Sequence record: NC_004928.1
Length of the DNA stretch: 64,000 nucleotides
Origin: Escherichia phage RB69
Direction: 5' to 3' (one strand)
The translations under genes were made by a program, and so were the position numbers. The notes below the pieces were generated by a model, which was given only the letters and a program-made list of their open reading frames with translations, did not search any database and was not told the DNA's origin. Numbering within the stretch: the stretch's first letter is position 1; every line of letters starts with the position of its first letter. Positions 5,731-45,672 of this stretch are shown piece after piece.

Positions 5731-5971
5731 TCAAAATATTTTGCCAATTAGGCATACCTTCTGAACATATGCCGGAGAACCGTCTTTATTTTTGAATGAT
5801 GCAAGTTTATCAGTGGCCCAATAACCTTTAGTTCGAGCTTCAGAATCAACTTTCATCCATACTTTGTTGAAGGCATTACCATTAACTTTTGCACCATATT
5901 TTTGTACTTTCGGTTACAGATCCAGCTTCCAGAACTTTTACAGTATCTCGTAAGAAACGTGCTTTAGTCAT
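5731..5971 (-). pseudogene. small ORF interrupted by a 1-nt frameshift at an A5 run (about 79 codons if corrected)
   Basis: Hand translation of minus strand: MTKARFLRDTVKVLEAGSVTESTK then stop; adjacent frame continues ...YGAKVNGNAFNKVWMKVDSEARTKGYWATDKLASFKNKDGSPAYVQKVCLIGKIF*. Confidence 0.45.
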
Positions 5972-6037
5972 TTTGTTTACTCCTCTGCAGCTGATAAGTC
6001 GATAGTATCACATACCAAATACGTTGTAAACAATCTT

Positions 6038-6045
6038 TATAAATA
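6038..6045 (+). promoter_or_regulatory. late promoter TATAAATA upstream of gene 24
   Basis: Exact TATAAATA. Confidence 0.6.
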
Positions 6046-6072
6046 ATCTATATCACATAAGGGAAAAATGCA

Positions 6073-7356
6073 ATGAGTAAAATCCAAAAATTATCGCGTG
6101 AATCTACAACGTCTACCAGCAACTCAATTGGTCGCCCAAATCTCGTTGCTTTGACTCGCGCTACGACTAAATTAATATATTCTGACATCGTAGCAACACA
6201 AAGAACTAATCAACCTGTTGCTGCTTTTTATGGTATCAAATATCTTAACCCAGATAACGAATTCACATTTAAAACTGGTGCTACTTATGCTGGCGAAGCT
6301 GGATATGTAGACCGAGAAAAAATTACTGAGCTCACAGAAGAATCAAAAGCCACACTAAATAAAGGCGATTTTTTCAAATATAATAATATCGTCTATAAAG
6401 TGTTAGAAGATACACCATTTGCAGATATTCAAGAAAGTGATCTAGAATTAGCTCTTCAGATTGCAGTCGTTCATTTAAAGGTACGGTTGTTTTCAGATGC
6501 AGCGGTAACAAGCAAATTTGAAAGCTCTGGTAGCGAAATTTCTGATGCAAGATTCCAGATTAATAAATGGCAAACTTCAGTCAAATCTCGTAAACTTAAA
6601 ACCGGCCTCACGGTTGAATTAGCGCAAGATTTGGAAGCGAATGGATTTGATGCCCCTAACTTCTTAGAAGATTTGCTTGCAACTGAAATGGCTGATGAAA
6701 TTAATAAAGATATTCTTCAGTCTTTAATTACTGTATCGAAACGTTATAAAGTTACTGGAATTACTGACACCGGATTTATTGACTTGAGCTATGCATCCGC
6801 TCCAGAAGCAGGTCGTTCGTTATATCGAATGGTGTGTGAAATGGTATCACACATTCAAAAAGAGTCAACTTATACTGCGACGTTTTGTGTAGCTTCAGCT
6901 CGTGCAGCTGCTATTCTTGCTGCTTCCGGTTGGTTAAAACATAAACCAGAAGATGATAAGTATCTTTCACAAAATGCTTACGGGTTCTTAGCTAATGGTT
7001 TACCGCTTTATTGCGATACTAACAGTCCATTAGATTATGTGATCGTTGGCGTAGTAGAAAATATCGGTGAAAAAGAAATTGTTGGATCAATTTTCTATGC
7101 TCCGTATACAGAAGGTCTCGACTTAGATGACCCGGAACATGTTGGTGCATTTAAAGTTGTAGTTGATCCAGAAAGCTTGCAACCGTCTATTGGTTTATTG
7201 GTTAGATACGCTTTATCAGCAAATCCTTACACAGTAGCAAAAGACGAAAAAGAAGCGAGAATAATTGATGGCGGGGACATGGATAAAATGGCAGGACGTT
7301 CAGACTTGTCTGTTTTACTCGGTGTTAAATTGCCTAAAATTATTATAGATGAATAA
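6073..7356 (+). CDS. 24: capsid vertex protein gp24
   Basis: 427 aa, near-identical to recalled T4 gp24; TATAAATA at 6038-6045. Confidence 0.97.
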   Translation: MSKIQKLSRESTTSTSNSIGRPNLVALTRATTKLIYSDIVATQRTNQPVAAFYGIKYLNPDNEFTFKTGATYAGEAGYVDREKITELTEESKATLNKGDFFKYNNIVYKVLEDTPFADIQESDLELALQIAVVHLKVRLFSDAAVTSKFESSGSEISDARFQINKWQTSVKSRKLKTGLTVELAQDLEANGFDAPNFLEDLLATEMADEINKDILQSLITVSKRYKVTGITDTGFIDLSYASAPEAGRSLYRMVCEMVSHIQKESTYTATFCVASARAAAILAASGWLKHKPEDDKYLSQNAYGFLANGLPLYCDTNSPLDYVIVGVVENIGEKEIVGSIFYAPYTEGLDLDDPEHVGAFKVVVDPESLQPSIGLLVRYALSANPYTVAKDEKEARIIDGGDMDKMAGRSDLSVLLGVKLPKIIIDE

Positions 7357-7359
7357 ACA

Positions 7360-7388
7360 AAAAAAGGGACCTTACGGTCCCTTTTTTC
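7360..7388. terminator. bidirectional terminator between gene 24 and rnlB
   Basis: aaaaaa-gggacc-ttac-ggtccc-tttttt between convergent genes. Confidence 0.75.
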
Positions 7389-7389
7389 G

Positions 7390-8388
7390 TTATGATACTA
7401 ATTCAATCCATGCAGGACGCAGAACATCTTGCACCATTCGGACTAATTCTTTCTTAACAAGATTCGGATTATCAGATGTTGTTAATACAATACCTTCACG
7501 AGAAGTTTCTTCCAGAATATCTTGAACAGTCAATCCCATCACTTTGCCAAAATCTTTTGGCGTTACAGTCCCAATCTTAGAAATAACATTATTAACACGA
7601 TTTAATGTAACATAACAAGCTAGAACATCAAGCAAGTTTTTGTCAATTTCGGTTAATGGAACCTGAGTTTTAATAGGCTTATCAGACTTTTTCTTTTCAC
7701 TGAATTTAGAGTTCTTGCACTTAATCGCTACACGAGTACCGTTTGGCAGCCATTTAGGGAAACAAGGCTTCAGAACATAACCTTCTGCAGTATTATCACC
7801 AATAACATTAGCATCAAATACACAATTATTTGCTTCTACAAGGTCTTCTGACGCAGTAGCATTATAAGCGGCTAAAACGGAATCAAGGTCATTTGGAATC
7901 ATGATAAGAGAATCAAATGTTCCACGACCAAGCATTGGTGCCATTTTAAAACCGAATTCATTACAGAAATCTTGCATTTCGTAATCGGTCAAATACGTAT
8001 TATCACCACTTTCTGTATTGATAAGGATATCGAACACATAAAAATCTTTTTCACCGTAGTCAACACCTTTCTGGATTCCACCACCAGCGAATTCACCGAA
8101 TACTTGATATGATACGGCTCGAGCTGTGTACATGAATTTCTGAACGGTTTTAATAGCTTTATCATACTTCTTGAGTACGATTTCATAACCATAAAAATCT
8201 TCTGCTGGAAGAATAGGGCCTGTGCGCTTGGCGCATGTGACGTTGTCACGTTCAATTATTAACGAGAAGTTGGTCCCATGGATTTTCTCACGTGCTACCC
8301 AAACACCAGTAGTCAAACCATTAGTGTAGAGTTTTTCAATAAACTTAGAGTTGTAGTGGTTTTCAAGACTGCTGTATTTCTTAAACAT
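7390..8388 (-). CDS. rnlB: RNA ligase 2
   Basis: 332 aa; N-terminus [16 protein letters not shown] and KIHGTN ligase motif I as in T4 Rnl2. Confidence 0.93.
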
Positions 8389-8507
8389 AAATCACCATTA
8401 TAAATAATAATATCAAAATAATTAGCAGAGACTCTATCTCCGACCCGATGTTTAATTTGAATGGATAGAACCTAGATTCATTATACCATCAAAAAATGTA
8501 AAGCATA

Positions 8508-8759
8508 TTAGAACTTGATTTCTATCCAATGACCATCACGTTGGTCGTGATTAATTTTGTACTGAAAGCCGTTATCACGAAGCCATTGACCGACTTGTTC
8601 AGTTATAGTTAAATCGTTCTTTGACGGGTAGTACGTGAATTGTGTCTGACCTTTGTCAGCGGCTTTCTCTGCCATCGCAGAGAAGTTAGTAATAAAATCA
8701 CTCAACAAATTAGCTTTAGTGGCCAGAGCCCTTTCTCTTAATTCCTGTGCAAAACTCAT
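8508..8759 (-). CDS. hypothetical protein (24.2-like by position)
   Basis: 83 aa ORF, overlaps upstream stop, T4-like position. Confidence 0.6.
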   Translation of the reverse strand: MSFAQELRERALATKANLLSDFITNFSAMAEKAADKGQTQFTYYPSKNDLTITEQVGQWLRDNGFQYKINHDQRDGHWIEIKF

Positions 8760-15109: not shown

Positions 15110-15865
15110 ATGGCTAATATAATTCGTTGTAAATTACCGGATGGTGTTCATCGTTTTAAGCCGTTCACTGTGGCGGATTATAGAGACTTTTTACTAGTTA
15201 GAAATGATATCGAACATCGTTCGCCGCAAGAACAAAAAGAAATAATTGCCGATCTGATTGATGATGATTATTTTGGCGAGTACCCTAAAACATGGCAACC
15301 ATTTATATTCCTGCAAGTTTTTGCAGGCTCTATAGGCAAAACAAAAGTTCCCGTTATTTTCACTTGCCCTAAATGCTCTAAAGAAAAAACTGCACCATTT
15401 GAGATATATCAAAAAGAACTAGTCGAACCTGAACTTGATGTTGCTGGTATAAAAATACGTTTTTCTTTCCCTGAAAAGTTTTATGACAATAAAGCATTAA
15501 TGATAAGTGAAAACATAAAAGAAATATATTATAATGATGAATGGTACCCATGGAATGATTTGACTGAAGAGAACCAAATCCAAGTAATAGAAGCAATAGA
15601 CATTGACTCGCTCGAGAAGGTTATTGCTTCTATGAATCCTATTAATTTGACCCTTAGATTAGGTTGTTGTGAACGTCATGTTAAAACATATACTGATATC
15701 TTAGAGGTTTTTAAATTGTTAGTTAACCCTGATGAGATTTTTACATTTTATCAGATAAACCATTCACTAGTAAAGAGTCAATACACATTGGATTCTATTA
15801 TGCAAATGATTCCTGTTGAACGTGGTATTGCTTTAACATTAGTAGAAAAGGACCATAAAAAATGA
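15110..15865 (+). CDS. 51: baseplate hub assembly protein gp51
   Basis: 251 aa; divergent from gp26 across a late-promoter region. Confidence 0.88.
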
Positions 15866-17515: not shown

Positions 17516-19284
17516 AACCTGAAGAAATGAAATCCATGCGTAGAAATAAGGTCATTGCCGATAATAAACCACAAAAAGTAGCTGCAACAGCAGCTACCGA
17601 TTCATTAGAAGCATTGAATAACATTTCATCAAAACTAGACGATGTCCAAGCTGCGTCTGAACTCACATCACAAAGTGTAGAAGATAAAGGCAATGGAATT
17701 ATTGAATCAATTGGAGACTTAAAGAATTCGACAGATAATACTGCTGAAGGCACAGAGCTTATCGCAGAAGTTATTGAAAAACAAACTGAAGTCACTAAAA
17801 GTATAAACGAAGTTTCTAGTGCAATAAGCTCTAAGTTAGACCGATTAGCTACATTATTAGAGCAAAAATTACAAACATCTACCGCTATTCAAAATACAGG
17901 AGGCACCTCTCTTGAAGTAATTGAGAATGCAATACCTGTTAAAGTGGTTGAGAATGAAACTTCTGATGAGTTGTTTAAAGCATTCCCTACACCTGAAAAG
18001 ATCGATAATAAGCCAGACGAAGATTTCTTCCCAACGCCGGTTCAAGAAAGTGCTAATTCTACTTCCGATTCTAAAGGCGGGATTAGCTTTAAATTGAGCG
18101 ATAAAATTGCAATGCTCACCAAAACAGTTCAAACCGGGTTTAATAAATCAATATCAATTTCAGACAGAATTGCTGGAATGCTTTTCAAATACACTATAAC
18201 GGCTGCTATTGAAGCAGCAAAAATGGCCGCACTTATTCTTGGTATTGTTATCGGTATTGATTTATTGATAGTCCATTTCAAATATTGGACAGACAAGTTC
18301 ACTTCTGCCTGGGATTTATTTGATGAAAACTTTACTAAATTCTCCGATGAAGCTAAAGAGTGGGGTAAATTCTTAAGTGATATATTCACTTCTATTGACT
18401 CGATAAAACAATTGTGGGAAGCTGGAGACTGGGGTGGTTTAACCGTTGCTATTGTCAAAGGTGTAGGAACAGCATTAATGAACTTAGGTGAACTAATTCA
18501 ATTAGGAATGGCTAAACTCTCCGCATCTATATTGCGTGCTATAGGTTTTGGTGATACCGCGGACGAAATAGAAGGACGTGCTTTAGAAGGATTCCAAGAA
18601 ACTACTGGGAACAAATTAAAGAAAGAAGACCAAGAGAAAGTCGCCAAATATCAAATGAAGCGTGACGACGGGGAATTAGGAACCGTTTCTAAAGGTCTTG
18701 ATATGTTACAACGCGGCAAAACATTCGTTACTAACTGGGTTCGTGGTAATGATAATAAAGAAGAGTTTAGTACAAGCGATGAGCGTGCTGCGGAATCGGC
18801 AAAATTAAAAGAGTTACCTGAAGAGGAACGTAAAGAGGCATATATAAAAGCTAATGAAACTCGGGCAGCCTTAGTTAGATTTGAGGATTATATCGATAAA
18901 ATCGATATGACTAATCCGGAAAATGCTAAAAACGTTGAGAAGTCTTATGCCGATTTAAGTAAACTTATTAAAGACCCTGAACTTAATAAAACTCCTGTTG
19001 TTAAAAAGGAATTAGATGCTAGATTTGAAAAGCTAAATAATAAAATGGCTGAAGCCAAAAAGGCTCAGACAACAGTTAAGCCTGAATCTTCGTCTAAATC
19101 TCCGGAAGCAAAACAAGTTCAGTCAATAGAGAAAGGACGTGCTTCTGAATCTAAACAACAGCAACCGGTAGCGACGATTAGTAATACAAATAATGTCGTC
19201 AAAAAGAATACCGTAGTCCAGAATATGACCCCTGTAACAAGTACAACGGCTCCTGGAATTTTCCATGCCACCGGTGTTAATTAA
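17512..19284 (+). CDS. 29: tail tape measure / baseplate hub protein gp29
   Basis: 590 aa, same length as T4 gp29; central hydrophobic segment. Confidence 0.9.
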   Translation: MKPEEMKSMRRNKVIADNKPQKVAATAATDSLEALNNISSKLDDVQAASELTSQSVEDKGNGIIESIGDLKNSTDNTAEGTELIAEVIEKQTEVTKSINEVSSAISSKLDRLATLLEQKLQTSTAIQNTGGTSLEVIENAIPVKVVENETSDELFKAFPTPEKIDNKPDEDFFPTPVQESANSTSDSKGGISFKLSDKIAMLTKTVQTGFNKSISISDRIAGMLFKYTITAAIEAAKMAALILGIVIGIDLLIVHFKYWTDKFTSAWDLFDENFTKFSDEAKEWGKFLSDIFTSIDSIKQLWEAGDWGGLTVAIVKGVGTALMNLGELIQLGMAKLSASILRAIGFGDTADEIEGRALEGFQETTGNKLKKEDQEKVAKYQMKRDDGELGTVSKGLDMLQRGKTFVTNWVRGNDNKEEFSTSDERAAESAKLKELPEEERKEAYIKANETRAALVRFEDYIDKIDMTNPENAKNVEKSYADLSKLIKDPELNKTPVVKKELDARFEKLNNKMAEAKKAQTTVKPESSSKSPEAKQVQSIEKGRASESKQQQPVATISNTNNVVKKNTVVQNMTPVTSTTAPGIFHATGVN

Positions 19285-19292
19285 GGATTATT

Positions 19293-20402
19293 ATGATTAG
19301 TGTAAAAGAAATAGTAGTAGATGCAAAGGATTTAAATAAAGCAATCCCAGTCTCAGAAAGTGCTGGGCAAAGCACTAAAACCGAAACAACTACTAAAACT
19401 TATGTTGCTCAATTTCCTACAGGAAGAGCAGCCGGAAATGACTCCACAGGAGACTTCCAGGTAACAGACCTTTATAAGAATGGATTATTATTTACCGCGT
19501 ACAATATGTCTGCACGCGATTCAGGATCCCTAAGAAATTTACGTCCGGCATACGCCGGGACTTCATCTAATGGTATCATATCAGATTTAACTGATAATGT
19601 GAAAGATGCAGTGACTAAATTCTCAAATGGATTGCTTCCTGCCGGAGCTAATAAATCTACTATAAATAAAACTCCTGTTGCTAATATACTTTTGCCACGT
19701 TCCAAATCTGACGTTGATACAACTTCACATCGTTTTAATGATATCGGTGATAGCCTTATTACTAAAGGTGGAGGTACTGCTACGGGCGTTTTAAGTAACA
19801 TTGCTTCTACTGCAGTTTTTGGTGCATTAGATTCTATTACTCAAGGGCTTATGGCTGATAATAACGAACAGATTTATACGACTTCTCGTAGTATGTATGG
19901 CGGTGCTGAGAACCGTACTAAAGTCTTTACATGGGATTTAACTCCACGTTCAACTGAAGACCTTATGGCTATTATAAACATTTACCAGTATTTTAACTAT
20001 TTCTCATATGGTGAGACCGGTAAATCACAATACGCCCAAGAGATTAAAAGTTATTTAGACGAATGGTACCGTTCAACGTTTATTGAGCCTATGACACCAG
20101 ACGATGCTGTAAAAAATAAGACATTGTTTGAAAAGATTACTGCGTCATTAACAAACGTATTAGTTGTAAGCAACCCTACGATTTGGATGGTTAAAAACTT
20201 TGGACACACATCTAAATTTGACGGGTTAACTGATGTATTTGGCCCATGTCAAATTCAAAGCGTACGTTTTGATAAAACTCCAAATGGACAATTTAATGGT
20301 CTTGCTGTTGCTCCTAACTTACCGTCAACATTTACGTTAGAGATAACAATGCGAGAAATTATTACATTAAACCGTTCTTCACTTTATGCGGGGACTTTCT
20401 AA
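19293..20402 (+). CDS. 48: baseplate tail tube cap gp48
   Basis: 369 aa; T4 order. Confidence 0.88.
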   Translation: MISVKEIVVDAKDLNKAIPVSESAGQSTKTETTTKTYVAQFPTGRAAGNDSTGDFQVTDLYKNGLLFTAYNMSARDSGSLRNLRPAYAGTSSNGIISDLTDNVKDAVTKFSNGLLPAGANKSTINKTPVANILLPRSKSDVDTTSHRFNDIGDSLITKGGGTATGVLSNIASTAVFGALDSITQGLMADNNEQIYTTSRSMYGGAENRTKVFTWDLTPRSTEDLMAIINIYQYFNYFSYGETGKSQYAQEIKSYLDEWYRSTFIEPMTPDDAVKNKTLFEKITASLTNVLVVSNPTIWMVKNFGHTSKFDGLTDVFGPCQIQSVRFDKTPNGQFNGLAVAPNLPSTFTLEITMREIITLNRSSLYAGTF

Positions 20403-21749: not shown

Positions 21750-23836
21750 TATCCTTGGACAAATTTAAACGGAACTGATTCTAAATCCATTAAAGATGCT
21801 AACAATTTCAAACCTTTAGGTGCGCTAGTTTTTTCTACAAATGAAGAGAACGATACCGGCTCATCTGATTCGATTTCACCTGTCATAGCAACCACCTCAC
21901 CTGTTTCCATGAGAACATCACCATCATAAATGACAGCTTCATCTAACTGGTCTGAGGACATGACTTCAGCTTGAATAAATTTAAGGTTGGATTCTAAACC
22001 TGCACCAGTGTCAGATGACGCATCTGTAATTTTATTTATCTGCAAGAGAATGCCTCTAGGCAAAATAATTTCTTGCTCATTAGGGTGATTACTCAACTGT
22101 CCTGGATAAATCACGTTAACTTTATGAGCACCATCAATAGCCCATCCAACGTTAACACGGATTTGTTCTGGTGCATGCATAGCTGTTCTTACTTGACTAG
22201 GAGAAATAGTAACACCTTCGTCATTATTGTCAATGTTAAGCTCTTTGCGAACGTTCTTCAGGAGCAAGTCCAAGGGCAACGTTCTCTTTAAACCCACCGA
22301 AAATAATAGGAGCTTGTGAAGTGGAAACATAGTTTCTGAAGTAGAATACCTTATTTTTAACCATTGCTTCGTAAATAGGCATTCTGATAGACTGAGCTCT
22401 ATATAACGTTTGTCCTTCAGGTAACGGTCTCCATTTAAAAACGCCGAATCAAGACCATCAATAGCGCGTTTAACTTCATCTTCATCTGCAACATCGTAAA
22501 AATCTGGTTTATAACGACCTAACAACATATTATTGATATCGGTATACGCAGAAGAGGCATATTCACGAATAGCTCGTTTTTCAGCAACAGAGTATTGTTT
22601 AGGGTCCCGATTCATTGTTATATTAAAGGTGCCTCTAGCCGATTCTCGTGCATAAGTATACATCACATTAGACAAGAACGCTGATTTACGTTGTTTCCAA
22701 GTTTTTTCAGATACTTCAGCTAAAACGTCGTCGGCCAGTTGGAAATTATCACGTCTAAAATCTTCAAACCATTCGTCTTTAATAGAGTCTGCAATCTCAT
22801 TTGCAGCTTCAACAAAAGCAGCTAATGCTTTAACAGATGTTGTTTTTTCAGTTTTAATTTTCTTAGCAAACTTTTCTAAAGTTGGCTTAATAACACCACC
22901 ATAAGAAACTTCATCAGCAAATTTAAAGGATTCATCAATACGATTATAAATCTTATTTTCGATATCAGCAACTAAAGTGCCTTTTGCTGTGGACGATGCT
23001 TGGGCTAGTACTATTTCATATGCTTCAGGAAGTAATTCGGCTGTAGCCGGGCCACTAACTTCTTTAGCAGAATTTTCGTATTTCTGGAATAACTCACCTT
23101 CTTGGCGGTCCGCTTCTAAAGATTGACTTGCTGCAATAGCACGACGAGAAATTTTAGTACGAGCAATAACAGGCTTATCTTTACGTTTTTCTTCTACAGC
23201 AGCAATAGAACCAGCGATAGCCGTTTCTTTGGTGACCTTTTCGCCAGTCTTTTTACTCACATAAACTTCGCCAACATCAGAATCTACTTTCGTGTACAAC
23301 TCTGTGTTAATGTTAGGGATGCCTTTAATATCTTCAATGTTGGCATTTTTACGAACCATCATCACATAGGTGTGTTTACCTGTGAATTGATACATTGCCG
23401 ACAATACTTTAAAACGACCACCGGTTTTAGTAGAAACTAAACGAGCAAGAAGAGTTTGAAGCTGCTGTCCACGTCCTTTCAATTTCTTGGTAGGGAATCG
23501 GAACAGAACTGCATCCATACGAAGAGCTTTAACCTGTTCATATACTGTATTGAAAATGGTGTTGATTGCATCAATAGGAGCAGGACCAAGGCCATTTTTC
23601 AATTCAGCGAGATTACCCTTTTCAGATAGACTCATAATAACAACATGAGCGTATTTGTCGCCAAGTTTAACTTGTTTTACAGCATCACCTTCGGAAAGGT
23701 AAGAGAATAAGCGAACTACGATGTTTGTATCGATATCACCAATTTTCCAGACTTGTGGAACTTTAGCTTTAGGGTTCAAATTGACGACAGGAAGACTGCC
23801 TTCAGATTCAAACACTTCATTTAATTGTTCAGACAT
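21749..23836 (-). CDS. alt: Alt-like ADP-ribosyltransferase (packaged); ORF open but an internal segment appears frame-shifted
   Basis: 695 aa; T4 Alt position; ART-type helix motif YTDINNMLLGR and EQEIILPRG in ORF frame, but YRA and STS motif region reads in another frame (see findings). Confidence 0.8.
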   Translation of the reverse strand: MSEQLNEVFESEGSLPVVNLNPKAKVPQVWKIGDIDTNIVVRLFSYLSEGDAVKQVKLGDKYAHVVIMSLSEKGNLAELKNGLGPAPIDAINTIFNTVYEQVKALRMDAVLFRFPTKKLKGRGQQLQTLLARLVSTKTGGRFKVLSAMYQFTGKHTYVMMVRKNANIEDIKGIPNINTELYTKVDSDVGEVYVSKKTGEKVTKETAIAGSIAAVEEKRKDKPVIARTKISRRAIAASQSLEADRQEGELFQKYENSAKEVSGPATAELLPEAYEIVLAQASSTAKGTLVADIENKIYNRIDESFKFADEVSYGGVIKPTLEKFAKKIKTEKTTSVKALAAFVEAANEIADSIKDEWFEDFRRDNFQLADDVLAEVSEKTWKQRKSAFLSNVMYTYARESARGTFNITMNRDPKQYSVAEKRAIREYASSAYTDINNMLLGRYKPDFYDVADEDEVKRAIDGLDSAFLNGDRYLKDKRYIELSLSECLFTKQWLKIRYSTSETMFPLHKLLLFSVGLKRTLPLDLLLKNVRKELNIDNNDEGVTISPSQVRTAMHAPEQIRVNVGWAIDGAHKVNVIYPGQLSNHPNEQEIILPRGILLQINKITDASSDTGAGLESNLKFIQAEVMSSDQLDEAVIYDGDVLMETGEVVAMTGEIESDEPVSFSSFVEKTSAPKGLKLLASLMDLESVPFKFVQG

Positions 23837-26706: not shown

Positions 26707-27129
26707 TCAAGTTAGTATTGTATCATCTTTTGTTAGACCACTAGCCATGCTGTGCTTCAAAATTTTTCCTTTAGAGGCTTGTAAGGCATCACGAAACCCC
26801 TTGTTTTGGATCGCGGCTTCAAAATATGCATTTGTGTATAATTCTTTCCACGCTTCGGAGTATCTTGAAAATGGAACTCCTAACCAGAAGAGAGTCCCAC
26901 GGTCCTGAGCTCTTGCATAAGACCTTCCTGCTTGCTGTGCAGCCAATCCAGACAACCCAAATATACTATGTTGTTGTTCAACATTTTTCACCTTACATCC
27001 TTGGAGAAATCCTTCAAGACCTCCGAATTGAATACCATCCATAACAAAAGGCCATTGAGCAAAGTTACTTAATGCACATGACGGCCACTTGAAATTACTT
27101 CTAATCTCTAACTCAGGCATCTTTAACAC
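26707..27129 (-). CDS. NADAR / YbiA-like (DUF1768) domain protein
   Basis: 140 aa; SNFAQWPF...DG...EGFLQGCK resembles the YbiA/NADAR N-terminal signature (recalled). Confidence 0.55.
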   Translation of the reverse strand: MLKMPELEIRSNFKWPSCALSNFAQWPFVMDGIQFGGLEGFLQGCKVKNVEQQHSIFGLSGLAAQQAGRSYARAQDRGTLFWLGVPFSRYSEAWKELYTNAYFEAAIQNKGFRDALQASKGKILKHSMASGLTKDDTILT

Positions 27130-30117: not shown

Positions 30118-30181
30118 AAAAGTTTCGGATTTGTTCCCAATTCAGAGAACGAAGATTATTACCGAGAAGTACTGAATTACT

Positions 30182-30691
30182 TCAATACCAGCTTGGTTTT
30201 AGAATGTCTGCCCAATTTTCAGGAGATCGGTTGTATAATTCTGCGTATACAACCTTTTTAATACCTGACTGCGTAATAGCTTTAGTGCAATCAGGACACG
30301 GAGAAAGCGTAGTATATAACGTAGCGCCTTCAATAGAATTACCTTTACGAGCTGCAAACAAAATTGCATTCAATTCCGCATGGATTTCGTTATTAGCAGA
30401 CCATGCACTATGAGCGGCCCGATGTTCTTTAGCCAAAACAAAATTATCTGCCCGTCCAAATGCTGTAGTGCCTTCTTTATGTCCAGCAACGATGGCCGGG
30501 CTTGATTTATTCTTCAACCAACCATTTTCGGATGCATGTTCGCAACAGTTAACGCCACCTGCGGGTGAACCATTATATCCAGTAGAGATAATGCGTCCAT
30601 CTTTTTCAATGACCGCACCAACTTTCCATGAACAACATTTTGATTCTTGAGAAATCAAATAAGCAATTTGAAGATATGTGCTAGCTTTCAT
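30182..30691 (-). CDS. cd: dCMP deaminase, C-terminally truncated by local frame disruption
   Basis: 169 aa ORF with HAE and PCPDC zinc motifs; conserved C-terminus (LNWEQIRNFCGE) lies downstream after an in-frame TGA (see findings). Confidence 0.85.
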   Translation of the reverse strand: MKASTYLQIAYLISQESKCCSWKVGAVIEKDGRIISTGYNGSPAGGVNCCEHASENGWLKNKSSPAIVAGHKEGTTAFGRADNFVLAKEHRAAHSAWSANNEIHAELNAILFAARKGNSIEGATLYTTLSPCPDCTKAITQSGIKKVVYAELYNRSPENWADILKPSWY

Positions 30692-30942
30692 TATAGTGTT
30701 CCGTATACGCGAGTTGCTTCAACTAAACCGTCACTGCCTAATTTAAGGCTAGTAATCTGGTCACCATCTTTAGGATTAACGATTATGAGAAAAGAACGTG
30801 GAGATTCTTGAATAACTCGTAATGTTGCATCTTGGAAACGTTCAGACACCTTATTGATGAGTGCTTGAGCAAATTCTTGTACTTTAATCTGAAATTCGTG
30901 TACTGTAATTGGGGTTTCACTTAGCCTTTCGATTTCCCTCAT
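30691..30942 (-). CDS. hypothetical protein
   Basis: 83 aa ORF abutting cd. Confidence 0.5.
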   Translation of the reverse strand: MREIERLSETPITVHEFQIKVQEFAQALINKVSERFQDATLRVIQESPRSFLIIVNPKDGDQITSLKLGSDGLVEATRVYGTL

Positions 30943-31669: not shown

Positions 31670-32755
<1,086 letters not shown>

Positions 32756-36139: not shown

Positions 36140-37312
36140 TTAGAAATATTTTTTGTATGAATTGATTACATTTTGGTCTACATCATTATCAATTTGTGCG
36201 ACAAGATAAGAACTGATTTCAACTTCCTGAGGAGCTGCTTGAACTAAATCAGAGTTCAGATATTCACGAATCCAAGGATACGGATGCTTGGTCGGAGCAT
36301 CAGTAATTGGACATGGCAAACCGCACTGTTTCATACGAGACACAGTCAAGTAATCAACAAAAGCACACATACTCTGTGTATTGATACCTGGACATGTACC
36401 GTCTTTAAAGAGGTGTGCAGCCCATTCCTTGTACTTGACTATTAACTTCCATAAAAATGTCAACTGCTTCTTGTTCACATTCTTTAGCAATTTGAACCCA
36501 CTCATCGCCATCAGTACCAGATTGAAGTTGACGGATAATGTACTGAGTACCCTGAGATGGAGTTGTTCGTCACGAGCAATGAACTTCATAATCTTTGCAT
36601 TACCTTCCATAATTTCCATATTTTTATGGAAGTTGAAAGTACATGCAAATGATACGTAAAAACGAATAGCTTCTAAGGCGTTGATAACATGCAAACAGAG
36701 ATAAAGAGACTTCATTAAATCGCGCTTGGCGTTAAACATTATTTCTTCGTACATCTCAATATCATTCTGCTGGCATGAGCCTATTGAACACTCATAAACT
36801 TCCTTAGCATTTTCCCAATTACGAGTCTTGACTAGAACATCGTCATAATATTTACCTATTGATTCAGCTCGTTTCATGATTGCTTCGTCTAATACAATCT
36901 CATCAAATACTTTGGATGGATCGGTATAAAGATTTCGCATAATATGAGTATATGAACGAGAGTGAATAGTTTCACTGAATGTCCATGTTGCAACCCACGT
37001 ATCTAATGAAGGGTCGGAAATCAGTGCCATAAGTACCGCAGATGGGGCCCTGCCTTGGATAGAATCCAATAATGATTGATACTTAAGATTGTTTGTACAG
37101 ATGTCCTGTTGGAACTGAGGAAGCTTATTGAACTGTGCAGAGTCCAACATCAAGTTTACCTCTTCGGGGCGCCAGAAAAATGACAGGATTTCTATAAGTT
37201 CTTCAAAAACTTTATGACGCTGAATATCATACCGTGCAAGACCAAGACCAGAACCAAAGAACATCGGTTCGTTCAAAACATCGACTTGTTGTGTATTAAA
37301 AACTGTACTCAT
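36140..37312 (-). CDS. nrdB: ribonucleotide reductase small subunit NrdB; intronless, with internal out-of-frame segment
   Basis: 390 aa ORF; N- and C-terminal parts match class Ia NrdB; about 50 codons in the middle are read out of the conserved frame (see findings). Confidence 0.9.
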   Translation of the reverse strand: MSTVFNTQQVDVLNEPMFFGSGLGLARYDIQRHKVFEELIEILSFFWRPEEVNLMLDSAQFNKLPQFQQDICTNNLKYQSLLDSIQGRAPSAVLMALISDPSLDTWVATWTFSETIHSRSYTHIMRNLYTDPSKVFDEIVLDEAIMKRAESIGKYYDDVLVKTRNWENAKEVYECSIGSCQQNDIEMYEEIMFNAKRDLMKSLYLCLHVINALEAIRFYVSFACTFNFHKNMEIMEGNAKIMKFIARDEQLHLRVLSTLSVNFNLVLMAMSGFKLLKNVNKKQLTFLWKLIVKYKEWAAHLFKDGTCPGINTQSMCAFVDYLTVSRMKQCGLPCPITDAPTKHPYPWIREYLNSDLVQAAPQEVEISSYLVAQIDNDVDQNVINSYKKYF

Positions 37313-37367: not shown

Positions 37368-39623
37368 TTAAAGCTTACAAGCAGAGCAATCTTCAGCTTT
37401 AGGTGTTTCTAATTCATAGTCATCTGTACCTGACCCATCACGAGTGTTATGATAGTAGAGATTTTTTCCGCCAAAGTACCAGAAGTAAAGCAGATCGTCA
37501 AGCATTACCGACATTGGCACTTTACCTTTCTCAAATACAGCAGGGTCATAATAAGTATTAGCAGAAGCAGATTGGCACACCCATTTCAACATGATAGCAA
37601 CTTGGGTCAAATAAGGTTTATTACCTTTCTTAGCAAGTTTCCACGCGTAGTCGTAAAGACTCATGTTATGTTCGATATTAGGAACAACCTGTCGGAAGTT
37701 GCCTTCTTTAGATTCTTTAATACTTACAGGTCCACGAGGTGGTTCTATACCATTTGTGCTATTTGAGACTTGACTGCTTGATTCACATGGCATGAGAGCA
37801 CTAAGTGTACTGTTACGAATTCCATGTTCTTTTGAGTTCAGCTCGAAGTTCTTCCAGTCACAGACGTAGTTCGGGGCTGCGATTTGGTCAATCTTTTTAT
37901 TGTACCAGTCGATAGGTAATTCGCCTCTAGACCATTTAGTGTCTGAATAATACTCACAAGGTCCTTTTTCTTTGGCGAGTTTGATTGAAGCTTTGATAAG
38001 GCCATATTGCAATCTCTCGAACAATTCATGAGTCAAATAGTTAGCGTCTTCATATGAAGCAAAGTTAGAAGCTAACCATGCAGCATAGTTCGTCACACCG
38101 ACACCGAGATTTCGACGCTTTTTAGCTTTTAAAGCTTCTGGAACCGGATAATCTTGATAGTCTAACAGGTTATCAAGTGCACGTACTTGTACTTCAGCAA
38201 GTTCATTAATTTTATCTTGGTCTTGCCAATCAAATTTATCTAATACAAAAGCAGATAACGTGCATAAACCAATTTCAGCATCAGGACCATTCACATCATT
38301 AGTTGGAATAGCGATTTCACAACATAAGTTACTCTGACGAATTGGAGCTTTTTCACGAATAAACGGAGTGTAGTTATTCGTGTTATCAACAAACTGTGGA
38401 TAAATTCGAGCAGTACCAGAACGTTCAGTCATGAACAATTCAAAGAGTTCTAGTGCTTTGATTCTTTTCTTTCTGATTGTTGGGTCTTTTTCAGCTTTCT
38501 CATAAAGCTCACGGAATTTATCTTGATCTTCAAAGAATGAGTAATATAGTTCGCCTGACATTTCGTGAGGGCTAAATAAAGTAATATAATCATTTTTACC
38601 AAGGCGTTCCATCATGAGGTCATTAATCTGAATTCCGTAGTCCATATGTCGAATACGGTTTTCATCCACGCCTTTGTTATTTTTCAGAACTAATAGGTTC
38701 TCTACTTCTAAGTGCCACATTGGATAATACGCTGTAGCAGCACCACCACGAATACCACCTTGAGAACAAGATTTTACTGCAGTTTGGAAATGTTTCCAGA
38801 ATGGAATAACACCCGTATGTCGAACTTCACCCATACCGATCTTAGAACCTTCTGCACGAAGCATACCAACGTTGATACCGATACCAGCTCGTTTAGAAAT
38901 ATATTCAATAATTGATGCTGAAGTTTTGTTAATAGATTTTAACGAATCACCGGCTTCAATAACTACACAACTAGAGAACTGGCGAGTTGGAGTACGAGCA
39001 CCTGCCATAATTGGGGTTGGCAATGAAACTTGATGAGTAGAAACGGCATCATAAAAACGAATAATATGTTTCAAACGGTCATGAGTTTCGTCTTGGTGTA
39101 AGGCCATGCCAATAGCCATGATAGCAAACTGGGGAGTTTCATAAATCTTACCAGTTGTTTTATCTTTAACCAGGTATTTTTCTTTAAGCTGCATAGCACC
39201 AGCATAAGTCAGATCAAAATCTCGCTCATGTTTAATCCGAGAATCAAGATAAATGATTTCTTCTGCAGAATATCTAGACAACAACTCAGGATCATATTTG
39301 CCTTCATTAACACAATAAGAAATATGGTCGATAAAAGCAGGCGGTTCAAACTGCCCATATACATCTTTACGAAGTGCAAACATTAGCCCTTTGGCGGCGA
39401 CATACTGATAATCAGGTTCTTCGACAGAAATCGAGTTAGCTGCAACTTTAATACAAATCTTCTGGATATCTTTGGTGCTCATCCCGTCGACAAGATGGGT
39501 CTTAATTTCTTCGTACAATTCATATGGGTCGATTTGTGTTCCTTCACATTGCCAAGTTAAGACTTGAATAATTTTCTGTGCATCAAAATTTTGGGATACA
39601 CCACTGCTCTTAGTTACTTGCAT
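37368..39623 (-). CDS. nrdA: ribonucleotide reductase large subunit NrdA
   Basis: 751 aa; active-site NLCCE and C-terminal CSACKL cysteines. Confidence 0.95.
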   Translation of the reverse strand: MQVTKSSGVSQNFDAQKIIQVLTWQCEGTQIDPYELYEEIKTHLVDGMSTKDIQKICIKVAANSISVEEPDYQYVAAKGLMFALRKDVYGQFEPPAFIDHISYCVNEGKYDPELLSRYSAEEIIYLDSRIKHERDFDLTYAGAMQLKEKYLVKDKTTGKIYETPQFAIMAIGMALHQDETHDRLKHIIRFYDAVSTHQVSLPTPIMAGARTPTRQFSSCVVIEAGDSLKSINKTSASIIEYISKRAGIGINVGMLRAEGSKIGMGEVRHTGVIPFWKHFQTAVKSCSQGGIRGGAATAYYPMWHLEVENLLVLKNNKGVDENRIRHMDYGIQINDLMMERLGKNDYITLFSPHEMSGELYYSFFEDQDKFRELYEKAEKDPTIRKKRIKALELFELFMTERSGTARIYPQFVDNTNNYTPFIREKAPIRQSNLCCEIAIPTNDVNGPDAEIGLCTLSAFVLDKFDWQDQDKINELAEVQVRALDNLLDYQDYPVPEALKAKKRRNLGVGVTNYAAWLASNFASYEDANYLTHELFERLQYGLIKASIKLAKEKGPCEYYSDTKWSRGELPIDWYNKKIDQIAAPNYVCDWKNFELNSKEHGIRNSTLSALMPCESSSQVSNSTNGIEPPRGPVSIKESKEGNFRQVVPNIEHNMSLYDYAWKLAKKGNKPYLTQVAIMLKWVCQSASANTYYDPAVFEKGKVPMSVMLDDLLYFWYFGGKNLYYHNTRDGSGTDDYELETPKAEDCSACKL

Positions 39624-39965: not shown

Positions 39966-40826
39966 TTATACCGCCATTTTAGCTTTGATAGTTGGATGAG
40001 ATTCGTAATTTTTAAGAACGAAATCAGAATGTGTCATCGTTCCAGTAACCCAGTCCATTTGGATTTTTGTAGGCCAATTCTCAAAATTACTAGGCCAATT
40101 AATTTCAAGAGAACACAACTCTTTAGGTTCACGACGAAGAACTTCTTTGCATTGTTCTACATGATTGCTGTAGATATGCGTGTTGCCGCCTGAGAACACT
40201 AAATCACCCGGGATAAGGTTACACATCTTCGCTACAATATGCGTCAAGGCAGCGTACGAGGCGATGTTGAACGGCAGGCCCAAGAAAACATCTACACTGC
40301 GTTGATACCATTGTAAATCAAGATGTCCATTACGCACATTAAATTGATAGAACATATGACAAGGAGGAAGAGCCATTTGGTCAATTTCGGCAGGGTTCCA
40401 TGCAGAAACTATTTGTCGACGATCATTAGGAAGAGCTTTAATACGGTCGATAGTTTTGACCAATTGGTCTACACCACCAAAATCACGCCATTGCTTACCA
40501 TAAATAGGACCAAGTTCGCCGCTATGATATCCAAGGTCTTTTGCCTGATTTTCATAGTTGTCGTCCCAAATAGTTTTACCTTCAATTAGACTACCATGAG
40601 TACGAATACGCAAATCATTAACATTGGTAGAACCAGACATGAACCACAGTAGTTCGGCAATACAAGCTTTCCATGCAAGCTTCTTGGTTGTTACTGCAGG
40701 GAATCCTTTAGTCAGGTCCCATCGCAATTTAGTTCCGAACAGGGCAATAGTGCCTGTGCCTGTACGGTCGTCTGTTTCGTAGCCATTTTCTAGGATATCA
40801 TTAATCAGGTATTGGTATTGTTTCAT
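39966..40826 (-). CDS. td: thymidylate synthase (intronless)
   Basis: 286 aa continuous ORF; catalytic PPCH motif. Confidence 0.95.
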   Translation of the reverse strand: MKQYQYLINDILENGYETDDRTGTGTIALFGTKLRWDLTKGFPAVTTKKLAWKACIAELLWFMSGSTNVNDLRIRTHGSLIEGKTIWDDNYENQAKDLGYHSGELGPIYGKQWRDFGGVDQLVKTIDRIKALPNDRRQIVSAWNPAEIDQMALPPCHMFYQFNVRNGHLDLQWYQRSVDVFLGLPFNIASYAALTHIVAKMCNLIPGDLVFSGGNTHIYSNHVEQCKEVLRREPKELCSLEINWPSNFENWPTKIQMDWVTGTMTHSDFVLKNYESHPTIKAKMAV

Positions 40827-41410
40827 TTATACACGCTCTCAGTAATTTCGGTGAGTTCATCGATTCTGTAGTAATGAGATTCTACCATAGAACGTTGAAG
40901 CATAATATCTTGGACGAAATCTTTATCAAGTTGAACATCGGAATTAACACGACATTTCTTAATGATTTTAGTCATCACGATTTCATCGGCATAAGGCAGT
41001 GCTTGTTTTAATAATGCAGGACCACCAATAACCGAGACATCAACATGTTCAGTAGAAAGTTTAAACGGTACGTCGGTTGAAGGGCTAAACAGGTTAATTT
41101 CACCACCCATTACCAAGGTAATAAATTCTGCTTGGGTGATATAGAACCGTGCAAGTTCATCAGTTTTAGTCCTAGGCAGTTTTCTGGCCATATCAGTGAC
41201 AACCATATGAGTACGATCTGGTAGTAGACGAGGTAATGATGCAAAAGTCTTAGCACCCATAACCATTACAGTGTTTTTAGTGCGAGCAACAAAGTTACTC
41301 ATATCTTGTTTGATATGCTTCCATGGAAGTCCATCACCTAATCCAAAAGCATATTCCAGTTTATCATCAACTGTTTTAGACGGTGCGCATGCGAATACTA
41401 ATTTAAGCAT
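40823..41410 (-). CDS. frd: dihydrofolate reductase
   Basis: 195 aa; overlaps td start; T4 Frd similarity. Confidence 0.9.
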   Translation of the reverse strand: MLKLVFACAPSKTVDDKLEYAFGLGDGLPWKHIKQDMSNFVARTKNTVMVMGAKTFASLPRLLPDRTHMVVTDMARKLPRTKTDELARFYITQAEFITLVMGGEINLFSPSTDVPFKLSTEHVDVSVIGGPALLKQALPYADEIVMTKIIKKCRVNSDVQLDKDFVQDIMLQRSMVESHYYRIDELTEITESVYK

Positions 41411-42380: not shown

Positions 42381-42471
42381 TTTATTTTCCTCTCATTTGT
42401 TGATAAGTCTATAGTATCATGTTTAAAGGAAAAGTAAACAACTTTTTTTGGCAATTTACAGATACTCAAAA

Positions 42472-42489
42472 GGGAGACCGAAGTCTCCC
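42472..42489 (-). terminator. C(UUCG)G hairpin downstream of gene 32
   Basis: gggagac-cgaa-gtctccc (UUCG loop on minus strand), T-run follows. Confidence 0.6.
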
Positions 42490-42496
42490 TAATTTA

Positions 42497-43396
42497 TTAT
42501 AGACCAGCTAACAGGTCATCGAGGTCGCCATCGTCAGAAGACGAGGAACTCATGAAGTCATCTTCAGTTTTTGCAGAACTAAAGGCTTCCATGTCTTTAT
42601 CAAAATCGTCGAGGTCAGAAGCAACTTTATCTGCAACAGAAGCTGCTGCGGCTGCTGCACCACCCAGAGCGGCAGTACCAAGAACTTGATTAAATTTAGT
42701 ATTCAATTCTTCAAACGATTTGAACTTATCTTTAGAAGTCATTTCAGAAAGGTCAACCATTTGTTCGAACAATTCTTTCTGGAAAGATTCATCATCAATG
42801 TTTGGAATCGCAGATTGATTCAGGAATTTAGATTCGTCATAGTTACTGAAACCAGAAACCTGTTTAACTTTCAGCACAAAGTTAGCACCTTCCCATGGAC
42901 AAGTTACATCAACAGGAGTTTCACCCATTTCAGTATCAACTGCAATCATTGCATTGATTTTGTCCCAAATCTTTTTACCAAAACGGTATTTGAATACCTT
43001 ACCTTCATTATCTGGAGCTTGTGGGTCTTTAACAACCAGAATATTAGCCCAATAAGAAGTTTTACGTTTCAGTTGAGAATATTCAGTTTTGTTGGTATTG
43101 TACAGGTCATTTTTACTAATGTACTGACATACAGGACAAGAGTCATAATCGCCGTGTGTAGATGAACAGGTTTCAATATACCATTTGCCATTTTTCTTGA
43201 ACCCGTGGTTAACAAGAATTGCAAACGGAAGTGCGTCATCTGTTTTTGCCGGCAGGAAACGAATTACCGCTTGACCATTACCGGATGCATCGAGTTTCAG
43301 CTTCCATTCACCTTTATCTTCTGAAGAGAAACCTTTGTTACCATTCAGTTTAGCCATCTGAGCTGCGAGGTCTGCGGTACTTTTACGTTTAAACAT
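42497..43396 (-). CDS. 32: single-stranded DNA-binding protein gp32
   Basis: 299 aa; zinc ligands [11 protein letters not shown]; acidic C-terminus; T4 gp32 similarity. Confidence 0.97.
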
Positions 43397-43512
43397 TATA
43401 TTTACCTTTATTTAGATTATTTAATTTATTTACAGTTGGTTGCTACGACACTTATACCTCGTAGCTGGTATGATTTATTTATAAAGTAATTTTAACACAG
43501 ATAAAATAAAGC

Positions 43513-44166
43513 TTAATACTTACATGATTTTATTGTTTCTATGAACAATTTCTTAGCAGCATTTACATCGATTTGAAGTATTTTTCGATATGCCTTTAAT
43601 TTGGTAGAATAATTTTGCCAGACTAAATTGTCAGTAAGTTCGTCATGCTTATCTATAATATTCAAGAATGAATCCAACAACAAGAAGGTTTCAAACGAAA
43701 TTATATTGCTTTGTAGCAATTTAAATATGTAGCTCGACTGAACTTTATTATTATAATCAAATATCTCTTGAAGCGCACTAACTTCCACTTTCTTACTGAA
43801 ATAGTAGATGTTACGTACATCTTCAGCAAACGTCTCCTTGGCTTGTTTGAGACGTCCAATATATTCCCTATAGAAAACTAATGCATCAGCGTCTGATATC
43901 TCACCAATCCATGCATCTTGGTTAGCAACTAAGTTACTGATGAATATCAAAGTGAGTTCCTTTAACTTATATTTCTCTGCTAGTTTCTCAAAGAAATATT
44001 TATCTCGGCGTTTTTGATATGCATTATCCGAAACACGCATGCACCAGTTATATTTGATTACGTCATACCGACCATTAAAATGTTGTTTGCACATCAAGTA
44101 TAGTTTGTATACCGATTTTCCATTAATATAACGTTCTCCGTCGGGAGGCATGCGTATTTTAATCAT
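43513..44166 (-). CDS. 59: helicase loader gp59
   Basis: 217 aa as in T4 gp59. Confidence 0.92.
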   Translation of the reverse strand: MIKIRMPPDGERYINGKSVYKLYLMCKQHFNGRYDVIKYNWCMRVSDNAYQKRRDKYFFEKLAEKYKLKELTLIFISNLVANQDAWIGEISDADALVFYREYIGRLKQAKETFAEDVRNIYYFSKKVEVSALQEIFDYNNKVQSSYIFKLLQSNIISFETFLLLDSFLNIIDKHDELTDNLVWQNYSTKLKAYRKILQIDVNAAKKLFIETIKSCKY

Positions 44167-44501
44167 AATAAGAAATCTAACGTATTAGTTTTTTCACCAC
44201 GAGCAACTGATGGGCGAAGCATGTTTTCGTCAATTGCTTCGCTTGTAATTTTTTCAACAATTCCTGTAGGAATAAATTTAGCAAATTGTGTTTCTGGAAT
44301 AGAATTTTCTTCCAAGAAAGCAGTTGTTGCTTCTAAATAAGACATACCAAATTGTTCAACCATGGATTCGATAATGAATCCGTTTTCTTGACGGTCAAGC
44401 AATTTAGCGATATCATCTTTATCATGTTTTACTGCTAATTCTTGTTCAGATAAACCGGTCTCATCAACCGGTTTAATATCACTTAGTGAAAACTGTGTCA
44501 T
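44163..44501 (-). CDS. 33: late transcription co-activator gp33
   Basis: 112 aa as in T4 gp33. Confidence 0.9.
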   Translation of the reverse strand: MTQFSLSDIKPVDETGLSEQELAVKHDKDDIAKLLDRQENGFIIESMVEQFGMSYLEATTAFLEENSIPETQFAKFIPTGIVEKITSEAIDENMLRPSVARGEKTNTLDFLL

Positions 44502-44748
44502 AAAGCTCGACTACCTCTTCGTTTTCAGCTTCAAATTGGTCACGAGCATCTTTATGATAAAGAGCTAACAAACGATTAAACATTTTTCCATCAACGCCAA
44601 GCTCTTCTTTAGCACGAGTACGAATGTCTTTAATCAGTTCATTATAACCAGAAATTTTAAGTTTGTTATCGGAAGCTTCCTTGACTAGTTTAGCCAGTTC
44701 TTCACCATGCACATCTTGATTAAATTCAACTGCTTCTTTCTTAGCCAT
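44479..44748 (-). CDS. dsbA: dsDNA-binding protein DsbA
   Basis: Track ORF to 44766; Met at 44748 (MAKKEAVEF) matches recalled T4 DsbA start and follows AGGT RBS. Confidence 0.85.
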   Translation of the reverse strand: MAKKEAVEFNQDVHGEELAKLVKEASDNKLKISGYNELIKDIRTRAKEELGVDGKMFNRLLALYHKDARDQFEAENEEVVELYDTVFTK

Positions 44749-44799
44749 GTTTACCTCAGAATTCATTAATTACACTTGTTAATTTAGAAAGACCGGATT

Positions 44800-45672
44800 T
44801 TACAAGTATGAATAAATCTTGCCTTTAGGTTGTGGTTGATATGAGTTATAATACTCTATAATGGTTGAAGCAATATTATCAGGGATATAATCAAAATCAA
44901 TGAGAACCAAATTTTCTTGGTACCGTTTATATTCTTCTGCACTTAATAATACTTCAGCTTGAGAACGATCATTGGCAAGTGCTTCAATGATCGTTGTTTT
45001 CATGCTTGGAGTTCGTTCGCCTTCGACTCGAGTAAACCAGAAATCACCACGAACTCGAACAGACGCAACACCATCTTTACGGTCGCCTTTAAGAATTTTA
45101 GTCATGCAATCAATTTCGGCAGAACCATTCTTAATTTTAACCCATTTTTTCTGCGGTGGCGACCACTGTTTAACGTTAGGGTATTTGTGTAATTGTGTAA
45201 AGTCACCATCTGATGCAACAATACACACCTTATGACCAGCTAATGACAAATATTTAGTTAATACGCCGATATGGTCATCCGCTTCGTATTTGTCAATATC
45301 CATTACAACGTATGGCATATATTTCTTAATCTCATCAACGACTTGATGAAGTGCAGTAAAATATCCTTCCCAATCCCACTTTGAAGCTTCACGATCAGTT
45401 TTACGATTTTTCTTGTAGTAGTAAGCAAAGTCGCGTCGCCAATACCCAGAAGTAGCGTTATCCATGCACAATACAAATTTTGTATAACCTTGCTTACGGA
45501 ACATCACTACGTTTTTACGAATTGAATTCAAGACTACATGACGAACCATCGGAACGGTAATTTTATCACCATCTTCAAAGTTGTTTAATGCAGCTGCCAA
45601 TGCAATGTTACTAAAGTCTGCAAGCGCAATACCTTCTTTGTAATCTTCATCCAACATCATTTCTAAATCCAT
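44800..45672 (-). CDS. rnh: RNase H (5'-3' exonuclease), 3' end disrupted by apparent 1-nt deletion
   Basis: 290 aa ORF; conserved C-terminus LVKSGLSKLTSVINEF* continues in the +2 frame to 44756. Confidence 0.88.
   Translation of the reverse strand: MDLEMMLDEDYKEGIALADFSNIALAAALNNFEDGDKITVPMVRHVVLNSIRKNVVMFRKQGYTKFVLCMDNATSGYWRRDFAYYYKKNRKTDREASKWDWEGYFTALHQVVDEIKKYMPYVVMDIDKYEADDHIGVLTKYLSLAGHKVCIVASDGDFTQLHKYPNVKQWSPPQKKWVKIKNGSAEIDCMTKILKGDRKDGVASVRVRGDFWFTRVEGERTPSMKTTIIEALANDRSQAEVLLSAEEYKRYQENLVLIDFDYIPDNIASTIIEYYNSYQPQPKGKIYSYL

Follow-up and report, generated by a model that had tools for sequence, protein, structure and literature searches.

The frame disruptions seen in the genome record of phage RB69 are, on comparison with independently assembled sequences of the same phage, very probably mistakes in the Sanger sequence that was deposited in 2003, not features of the phage. 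This reading is favored because the disruptions are absent from later assemblies, are private to the record, and give way to restored homology on correction. The window analyzed here is a 64,000-nt stretch of that record (AY303349/NC_004928, deposited 2003, Sanger sequence), and we compared it, over 61,442 nt (window positions up to 61,442), with independent short-read Logan assemblies of RB69 from at least 10 runs. Beyond that point, the RIIB, DenB and small-ORF sequences gave either no exact record or relatives alone. The Logan contigs match the window at 99.8-100% identity, including stretches of 16,105 nt (L026) and 12,184 nt (L036) with 0 mismatches and one of 5,507 nt (L040) at 100% identity, whereas the nearest database phage reaches only ~95.5-97.6%. 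Because of this identity, and because RB69-specific gene content is common to contigs and window, the comparison contigs are, judged on sequence, RB69 itself. The later runs were judged from their assemblies. A further RB69 contig was reached through the RnlB sequence; the UvsW sequence matched relatives instead. A lone match of at least 99% to the nrdB region turned out to be no independent RB69 record, and a literature search for reports of RB69 re-sequencing or of errors in the record found none.

Record and assemblies differ at 58 sites, made up of 25 indel events and 33 substitutions, 21 of which are transversions. We examined each differing site in 18 relative loci and 20 re-sequenced contigs. 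The record's state occurs at none of them (0/18 and 0/20) for any of the 58 sites, the alternative state is common to assemblies and relatives at nearly all sites, and every one of the differences falls on the record's side, with none on the other lineage. Most single-base indels are miscounted runs of 1-5 bases. Compensated +1/-1 shifts, of which the initial annotation had counted two pairs, number seven and lie in six genes (gp22, the 23-24 ORF, alt, 30.3 twice, nrdB and nrdA).

The five disruptions first reported, in nrdB, alt, cd, rnh and the small 23-24 ORF, are all present in the window where they had been placed:

5705..5974, minus strand: small 23-24 ORF, conserved in Mosigvirus; -T at 5762, +G at 5912 and 10 substitutions between 5832 and 5941.
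22253..22425, minus strand: alt; +G at 22253 and -A at 22425, with codons ~471-528 (~57) out of frame and the ORF open.
30163..30196, minus strand: cd; +C at 30163, +A at 30167 and +G at 30196, with a stop at 30182-30184 between.
36431..36554, minus strand: nrdB; +A at 36433 and -T at 36554, with codons ~253-293 (~40) out of frame.
44800..44806, minus strand: rnh; -A at 44806 (AAA read as AA) in codon 289, followed by a stop at 44800-44802.

All five are gone from every independent RB69 assembly. The assemblies encode an NrdB of 391 aa and an unshifted Alt; Cd is 169 aa in the record vs 193 aa in every relative and every re-sequenced contig, and RNase H is 290 aa in the record vs 305 aa in contigs from 5 runs. 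The 23-24 ORF, which in the window has several stops between its two indels, keeps its full 89 aa in 5 re-sequenced RB69 contigs, and its corrected sequence is present on 262 contigs. Corrected Alt, Cd, NrdB and Rnh are found on 8, 7, 8 and 9 contigs, respectively, vs 1 for the window versions, and the record's NrdB and Alt form singleton clusters at 90% identity. When the consensus base is put back, homology to T4 and other relatives is regained across the affected segments, and Pfam matches become continuous or full length.

The corrected Alt segment aligns to residues 469-526 of T4 Alt with a score of 179, against 22 for the window's segment, and the Pfam ADPrib_exo_Tox match rises from 56.5 bits, split, in the window to 97.9 bits in corrected Alt. 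The corrected NrdB segment shares 92.7% identity with T4 NrdB; the window's segment matches T4 solely out of frame. The true alt gene contains no stop-free 57-codon window in either off-frame. Each of the substitutions at 22315 and 22411 in alt, and at 36431 and 36444 in nrdB, deletes one stop in the wrong frame, so that 4/4 substitutions at these stretches erase off-frame stops, an outcome with a probability of 3.1e-7 for random substitutions. This pattern suggests that poor reads at alt and nrdB were edited by hand, with the ORFs as guide.

Frame changes inside functional genes are also known from T4 gene 60, which is translated by bypassing, and one might ask whether those in RB69 are decoded by bypassing or by programmed ribosomal frameshifting. 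Nothing speaks for this except that such frame changes exist in a T4-like phage. Recoding signals in T4-like phages are conserved in relatives and lie in real DNA, whereas the RB69 frame changes occur in one database record alone and the translations of the shifted segments have no homologues. Because no relative and no re-sequenced RB69 contig carries the frame change, there is nothing to recode; we reject programmed recoding, whose likelihood we consider negligible.

Alignment along the whole comparison revealed further lesions beyond the first five:

3260..3267, plus strand: gp22, the essential scaffold protein; +A at 3260 and -C at 3267, so that residues 4-6 read RTI instead of EQL.
15266..15268, plus strand: gp51, essential; an extra GAT within a GAT repeat, adding one Asp.
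26710..26970, minus strand: 30.3; two short compensating pairs (26710/26714 and 26967/26970) and one substitution.
30850..30938, minus strand: cd.2; three substitutions and +C at 30938, by which the record gains a spurious N-terminal extension of 5 residues.
32149..32389, minus strand: pseT; six clustered record-only substitutions, four of them altering the protein.
37098..37189, minus strand: N-terminal part of nrdB; a substitution at 37098 (F->C in the record); at 37186-37189, a net loss of 3 nt, with one residue missing and one changed.
37833..37856, minus strand: nrdA; +T at 37833 and -C at 37856, scrambling seven residues (591-597).
29045, 42490 and 56604: record-only single-base indels in non-coding DNA.

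Some isolated substitutions (in pseT, in cd.2 and at 5988-6189) could in principle be true differences between stocks. Corrected gp22 is present on 346 contigs. With the gp22 pair and the extra GAT of gp51, it is not fully true, as the initial annotation had it, that only dispensable genes are disrupted, and its list of genes that read cleanly does not fully hold either, given the pair in NrdA and an S8L substitution in the record's gp24. Separately, 30.3 is 137 aa in the re-sequenced RB69 contigs too, vs 152 aa in relatives, a genuine frameshift in a dispensable gene.

Essential coding sequence makes up 49% of the covered window, not the much larger share that had been supposed. Essential genes hold just 2/13 coding error clusters (P = 0.008), and to that extent the earlier impression that they are under-hit is statistically sound. 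However, the early-gene block (21,397-45,672), with 39.5% of the covered length, holds 13/17 error clusters (P = 0.002) and is only 15% essential; 0/13 clusters lie in its essential genes, which at P = 0.12 is not distinguishable from chance. The skew towards dispensable genes is thus real but positional: the apparent preference arises because the error-rich early block holds few essential genes. Enrichment in dispensable genes beyond what position explains, as relaxed selection would predict, is not seen (P = 0.008 overall, P = 0.12 within the block).

The leading idea of the initial annotation was that the disruptions are real mutations in the 2003 stock, tolerated since laboratory growth does not require nrdB, alt, cd, rnh or the small ORF. 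It is true that the truncating lesions sit in genes non-essential in T4, that essential genes are avoided overall, and that a real frameshift in a dispensable RB69 gene exists in 30.3. Nevertheless, relaxed selection offers no explanation for differences that lie 58/58 on the record's side, for an indel:substitution ratio of ~1:1 with transversions in excess, or for seven compensated cases on an otherwise identical background, and it provides no reason why frames should be restored or stops removed within a scrambled segment (P = 3e-7). Systematic alignment also found frame breaks of the same kind in essential gp22 (and in nrdA), the read-based assemblies contain none of the five first-reported lesions, and the skew disappears within the early block. 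We judge real mutation under relaxed selection very unlikely; if the disruptions are mistakes in the record, they are uninformative about such selection.

Errors scattered uniformly and left unedited, missing the essential genes by chance, would account for the predominance of short-run miscounts and for the lesions in gp22, gp24, gp51 and intergenic DNA. Such errors would not be expected to cluster so strongly in the early block, to compensate one another exactly in six genes, or to clear the off-frame stops of both alt and nrdB, and we give uniform error as little credence as relaxed selection.

We instead envisage that record errors arose from reads of low quality and low coverage that were clustered between alt and rnh in the early-gene block, a block that may clone poorly in E. 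coli and may have been closed by PCR. According to the RB69 genome paper, plasmid shotgun libraries under-represented some regions, which were obtained only when gaps were closed by PCR (PMC1524935), a statement that concerns 'novel ORF' regions and not the early block specifically. In poor stretches, short base runs would have been miscounted and bases miscalled, and finishing may then have resolved base calls so as to keep frames open, with a second indel restoring the frame and stop-making bases called otherwise. The survivors would be those lesions that cause no obvious break in an annotated gene: shifts that are compensated (alt, nrdB, nrdA, gp22 and 30.3), C-terminal truncations (cd and rnh) and the altered start of cd.2. 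The lesions of the 23-24 ORF would have survived as well, the ORF probably having gone unnoticed. The possibility that the initial annotation had held in reserve, indel-prone sequencing or a frame-preserving step, is thereby upheld, by the short-run miscounts and by the stop-removing substitutions in alt and nrdB.

The same under-representation in plasmid libraries (PMC1524935) would also suit an origin of the lesions in the E. coli clones themselves, if host-toxic early genes could be cloned only as mutants that then entered the consensus, and the errors do concentrate in a block with host-directed enzymes (alt, denA-adjacent genes, cd and rnh). However, inactivation predicts a single early knock-out and not restored frames with stops removed; the cd and rnh lesions, at codons 166/193 and 289/305, leave the catalytic domains intact; and intergenic DNA, gp22 and gp51 are also hit. 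We consider mutant clones improbable, if somewhat less so than either relaxed selection or uniform error, and they would in any case still be an artefact and not phage biology.

There is a slighter chance still that the 2003 stock was a divergent RB69 sub-line that had accumulated frameshifts, compensations and stop-removing substitutions in auxiliary genes. Mutagenesis and mutator polymerase backgrounds were common in the laboratory studying RB69 gp43, and such a sub-line could stem from either. Were this true, the record would faithfully capture dispensable genes in the midst of rapid decay and repair.

Authentic lesions are found in T4-like phages, and likewise in non-essential genes: I-TevIII of T4 is defective, and alt.-1/alt.-2 are a decayed duplication of alt. 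By contrast with the five reported for RB69, authentic lesions reproduce in independent sequencing. Closer parallels to record error are the interrupted coding sequences of Mycobacterium smegmatis that were traced to sequencing errors (Genome Biol 2007, PMC1852416) and the corrections made on re-sequencing Treponema pallidum Nichols/SS14 (PMC3769245). In both, as in RB69, Sanger-era frameshifts or stops vanish when the same strain is re-sequenced and full-length homology is regained. RB69 differs from them in that most of its lesions are hidden as +1/-1 pairs, with the ORF open and off-frame stops removed, a pattern suggestive of manual finishing in addition to base-calling error.

If the record is in error as we conclude, the nrdB, alt, cd, rnh, nrdA and gp22 genes of RB69 are normal, and the disruptions have no biological import. 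They call for caution in inferring pseudogenes or relaxed selection from Sanger-era records, and they suggest that ORF-guided finishing can mask frameshifts as open, scrambled stretches. NC_004928 serves as the reference genome for a widely used model phage, and proteins derived from it carry wrong segments or are truncated, with the wrong versions spreading into UniProt and protein clustering. The affected record proteins are NrdB (NP_861928), Alt (NP_861900), Cd (NP_861914) and RNase H (NP_861940), together with NrdA, gp22, gp51, gp24, PseT, 30.3 and cd.2.

The frame disruptions in the deposited 2003 RB69 sequence are artefactual, a product of this legacy reference record. ORF content and similarity searches place the window in a T4-like Mosigvirus phage, its closest database matches being ~95.5-97.6% identical, and exact matches for six of its proteins, on a 167,560-nt contig, establish it as Escherichia phage RB69. 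Lesions were sought against the relative phiC120 in two ways, by comparing the translated phiC120 genes that match the window (n=92 annotated) with the window itself, and by tabulating every indel from the DNA alignment of the two. Both scans recover the five disruptions of the initial annotation, which was largely correct as an observation but incomplete, and which had listed nrdA as clean.

Lesions in the RB69 record (window coordinates), with record protein accessions
5762 to 5912, minus strand: small ORF between genes 23 and 24, -1 at 5762, +1 at 5912, out of frame in between
22253 to 22425: alt, +1 at 22253, -1 at 22425, out of frame in between, yet open, 695 aa (Alt, AAP76109)
30163, 30167, 30196: cd, +1 at each, stop at 30182-30184, 169 aa versus 193 (Cd, AAP76123, 169 aa)
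36433 to 36554: nrdB, +1 at 36433, -1 at 36554, shifted between; 3 nt missing at 37186-37189 (NrdB, AAP76137/NP_861928)
44806: rnh, one A missing, 290 aa versus 305 (RNase H, AAP76149, 290 aa)
Overlooked in the initial annotation:
3260/3267: gp22 (essential), +1/-1 pair
37833/37856: nrdA, +1/-1 pair
30.3: two short compensating pairs
cd.2: +1 at gene start
gp51: one additional GAT

Our comparison rests on assemblies of later public short-read runs (SRR16629520/23/24/25/26/27, SRR16634588/98, SRR29299745/47/48), in which contigs were found via exact copies of the RB69 proteins flanking the lesions (gp23, ligase, RnlA, gp59, RnlB and gp52). These contigs have RB69-specific gene content (cd without adjoining aroF, a gp37 of 1103 aa, a 30.3 of 137 aa) and are near-identical to the window: one matches at 100% over 5,507 nt (L040), another over 16,105 nt with 0 mismatches and 2 indels (L026), and a third over 12,184 nt with 0 mismatches and 1 indel (L036). 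They therefore represent RB69 sequenced anew. Throughout this set the 23-24 ORF is whole at 89 aa, protein lengths are 193 aa for Cd, 391 aa for NrdB and 305 aa for RNase H, and Alt lacks the shifted stretch. Corrected proteins, with the re-sequenced bases in place of the record's, are carried by 8 contigs for Alt, 7 for Cd, 8 for NrdB and 9 for RNase H; the window's versions occur in one contig only, the deposited record. A handful of isolated substitutions may reflect genuine differences between phage stocks. Programmed recoding is excluded, since the frame changes are absent from the real DNA.

Six re-sequenced contigs tile window positions 1-61,442, across which the record differs from them 58 times (25 indel events and 33 substitutions, the latter comprising 12 transitions and 21 transversions by our count). 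When the local window sequence and its alternative were sought for each difference in 18 relative loci and 20 re-sequenced contigs, the window's state was absent from all of these at 58 of 58 sites, and the alternative was common to relatives at nearly all. Two real lineages would divide the changes between them; all 58 lie on the record's side. Indels and substitutions in near-equal numbers (~1:1), an excess of transversions and tight clustering (11 differences inside 38 nt, 5904-5941) are likewise unlike natural divergence. A literature search for reports of these RB69 record errors found none. Exact window RIIB (311 aa, versus 315 aa in relatives) and DenB (158 aa), at 62234-63991, had no match in the contig index, and the last 2.5 kb of the window may hold more record-private differences. 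Within pseT, six record-only substitutions lie inside 240 nt (32149-32389), four of which alter the protein (G94V, K97E, N100K and P135L, record to re-sequenced); the reference polynucleotide kinase is probably also mis-sequenced.

Correction regains homology. For NrdB, the segment after correction shares 92.7% identity in frame with T4 NrdB, and the window's version matches T4 only if T4 is read out of frame. For Alt, the corrected stretch lines up with T4 Alt residues 469-526 (score 179 versus 22 for the window's) and contains LYR and STS stretches, putative elements of the ADP-ribosyltransferase active-site motif. Pfam matches improve too: ADPrib_exo_Tox, split in two at 56.5 bits in the window, becomes a single match of 97.9 bits; Ribonuc_red_sm gains from 103 to 130 bits; and RNaseH_C, limited to profile positions 1-109 in the window, spans 1-124 of 124 after correction.

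True alt has no 57-codon stop-free window in either wrong frame; the record's shifted stretch is nonetheless open. With the indel pair alone, the true sequence has 2 stops in the shifted stretch of alt and 2 in that of nrdB, and the record's sole substitutions there (22315 and 22411 in alt, 36431 and 36444 in nrdB) each turn exactly one off-frame stop into a sense codon. By enumeration of all substitution pairs, two random substitutions clear both stops with probability 4.1e-4 in alt and 7.5e-4 in nrdB (joint 3.1e-7). Random error does not yield such a pattern, and selection gains nothing by holding a scrambled segment open. Uniform random sequencing error fails on clustering as well as on stop removal. 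Real mutations under relaxed selection in dispensable genes, the biology favoured by the initial annotation, are contradicted by the independent assemblies without the lesions, the one-sided polarity, the restored frames and the removed stops. From the pattern of stop removal we infer ORF-guided hand editing as the simplest reading: ambiguous base calls in poor reads would have been settled by hand to hold the ORF open. Such editing would also account for which lesions survived, namely compensated shifts, a start-codon change and late truncations (cd codon 166 of 193, rnh codon 289 of 305), together with the lesion in the small ORF, which was probably not tracked. Mutations selected while cloning toxic genes might contribute, but these should be early knock-outs, not restored frames or C-terminal truncations, and would be artefact all the same.

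Contrary to the initial annotation, lesions are not confined to dispensable genes, as gp22 attests, but the skew that it perceived is present. Genes were classed after the T4 gene list, reportedly that of Miller et al. 2003; so classed, 49% of the covered sequence belongs to essential genes and 45% to other genes, and 6% is intergenic. The 58 differences group into 17 clusters, 13 of them coding, and essential genes hold 2 of these 13 (gp22 and gp51; P = 0.008 under uniformity), with one further cluster extending into gp24. The early-gene block (21,397-45,672, 39.5% of covered length) holds 13 of the 17 clusters (P = 0.002). This block is ~15% essential, and 0 of its 13 clusters fall in essential genes (P = 0.12); outside it, essential content is 71%, which agrees with the 2 to 3 of 4 clusters that reach into essential genes. 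Because clusters concentrate in a block with few essential genes, essentiality is confounded with position. In the genome paper on RB69 and four other phages, some regions under-represented in plasmid shotgun libraries were rescued only during PCR gap closure (PMC1524935), an account that leaves the early-gene block unnamed and fits lower-quality coverage of host-toxic early-gene blocks. The chief use of our finding is correction of the record, and caution.

Re-sequenced RB69 also has a 30.3 of 137 aa (window 26707-27120; contig L012, 8454-8867), versus 152 aa in relatives and T4; this C-terminal frameshift truncation, in a gene that is dispensable, seems to be a real characteristic of RB69. 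Another contig, L013 (SRR29299748), has a foreign tract within 30.3. Every short-read RB69 contig covering the gap between the 23-24 ORF and gene 24 starts or ends at 5982-5994, as would be expected if the assemblies branch there, possibly through mixed or hybrid populations in the samples; in T4 this position is occupied by segD. Contig L025 (13332-16228; SRR29299745_56; window ~40279-40866) is an RB69/T-even hybrid: between gp37 and frd it matches RB69 exactly, and from td on it is 98.9% identical to T4, td intron with I-TevI included. The hybrid is notable because recombination between RB69 and T4 is said not to occur. In phiC120 (NC_055718), the RefSeq gp29 (17955-19499) has an N at position 19475 and is annotated at 514 aa, whereas RB69, T4 and other relatives have 590 aa; this essential gene is probably mis-recorded in that genome.
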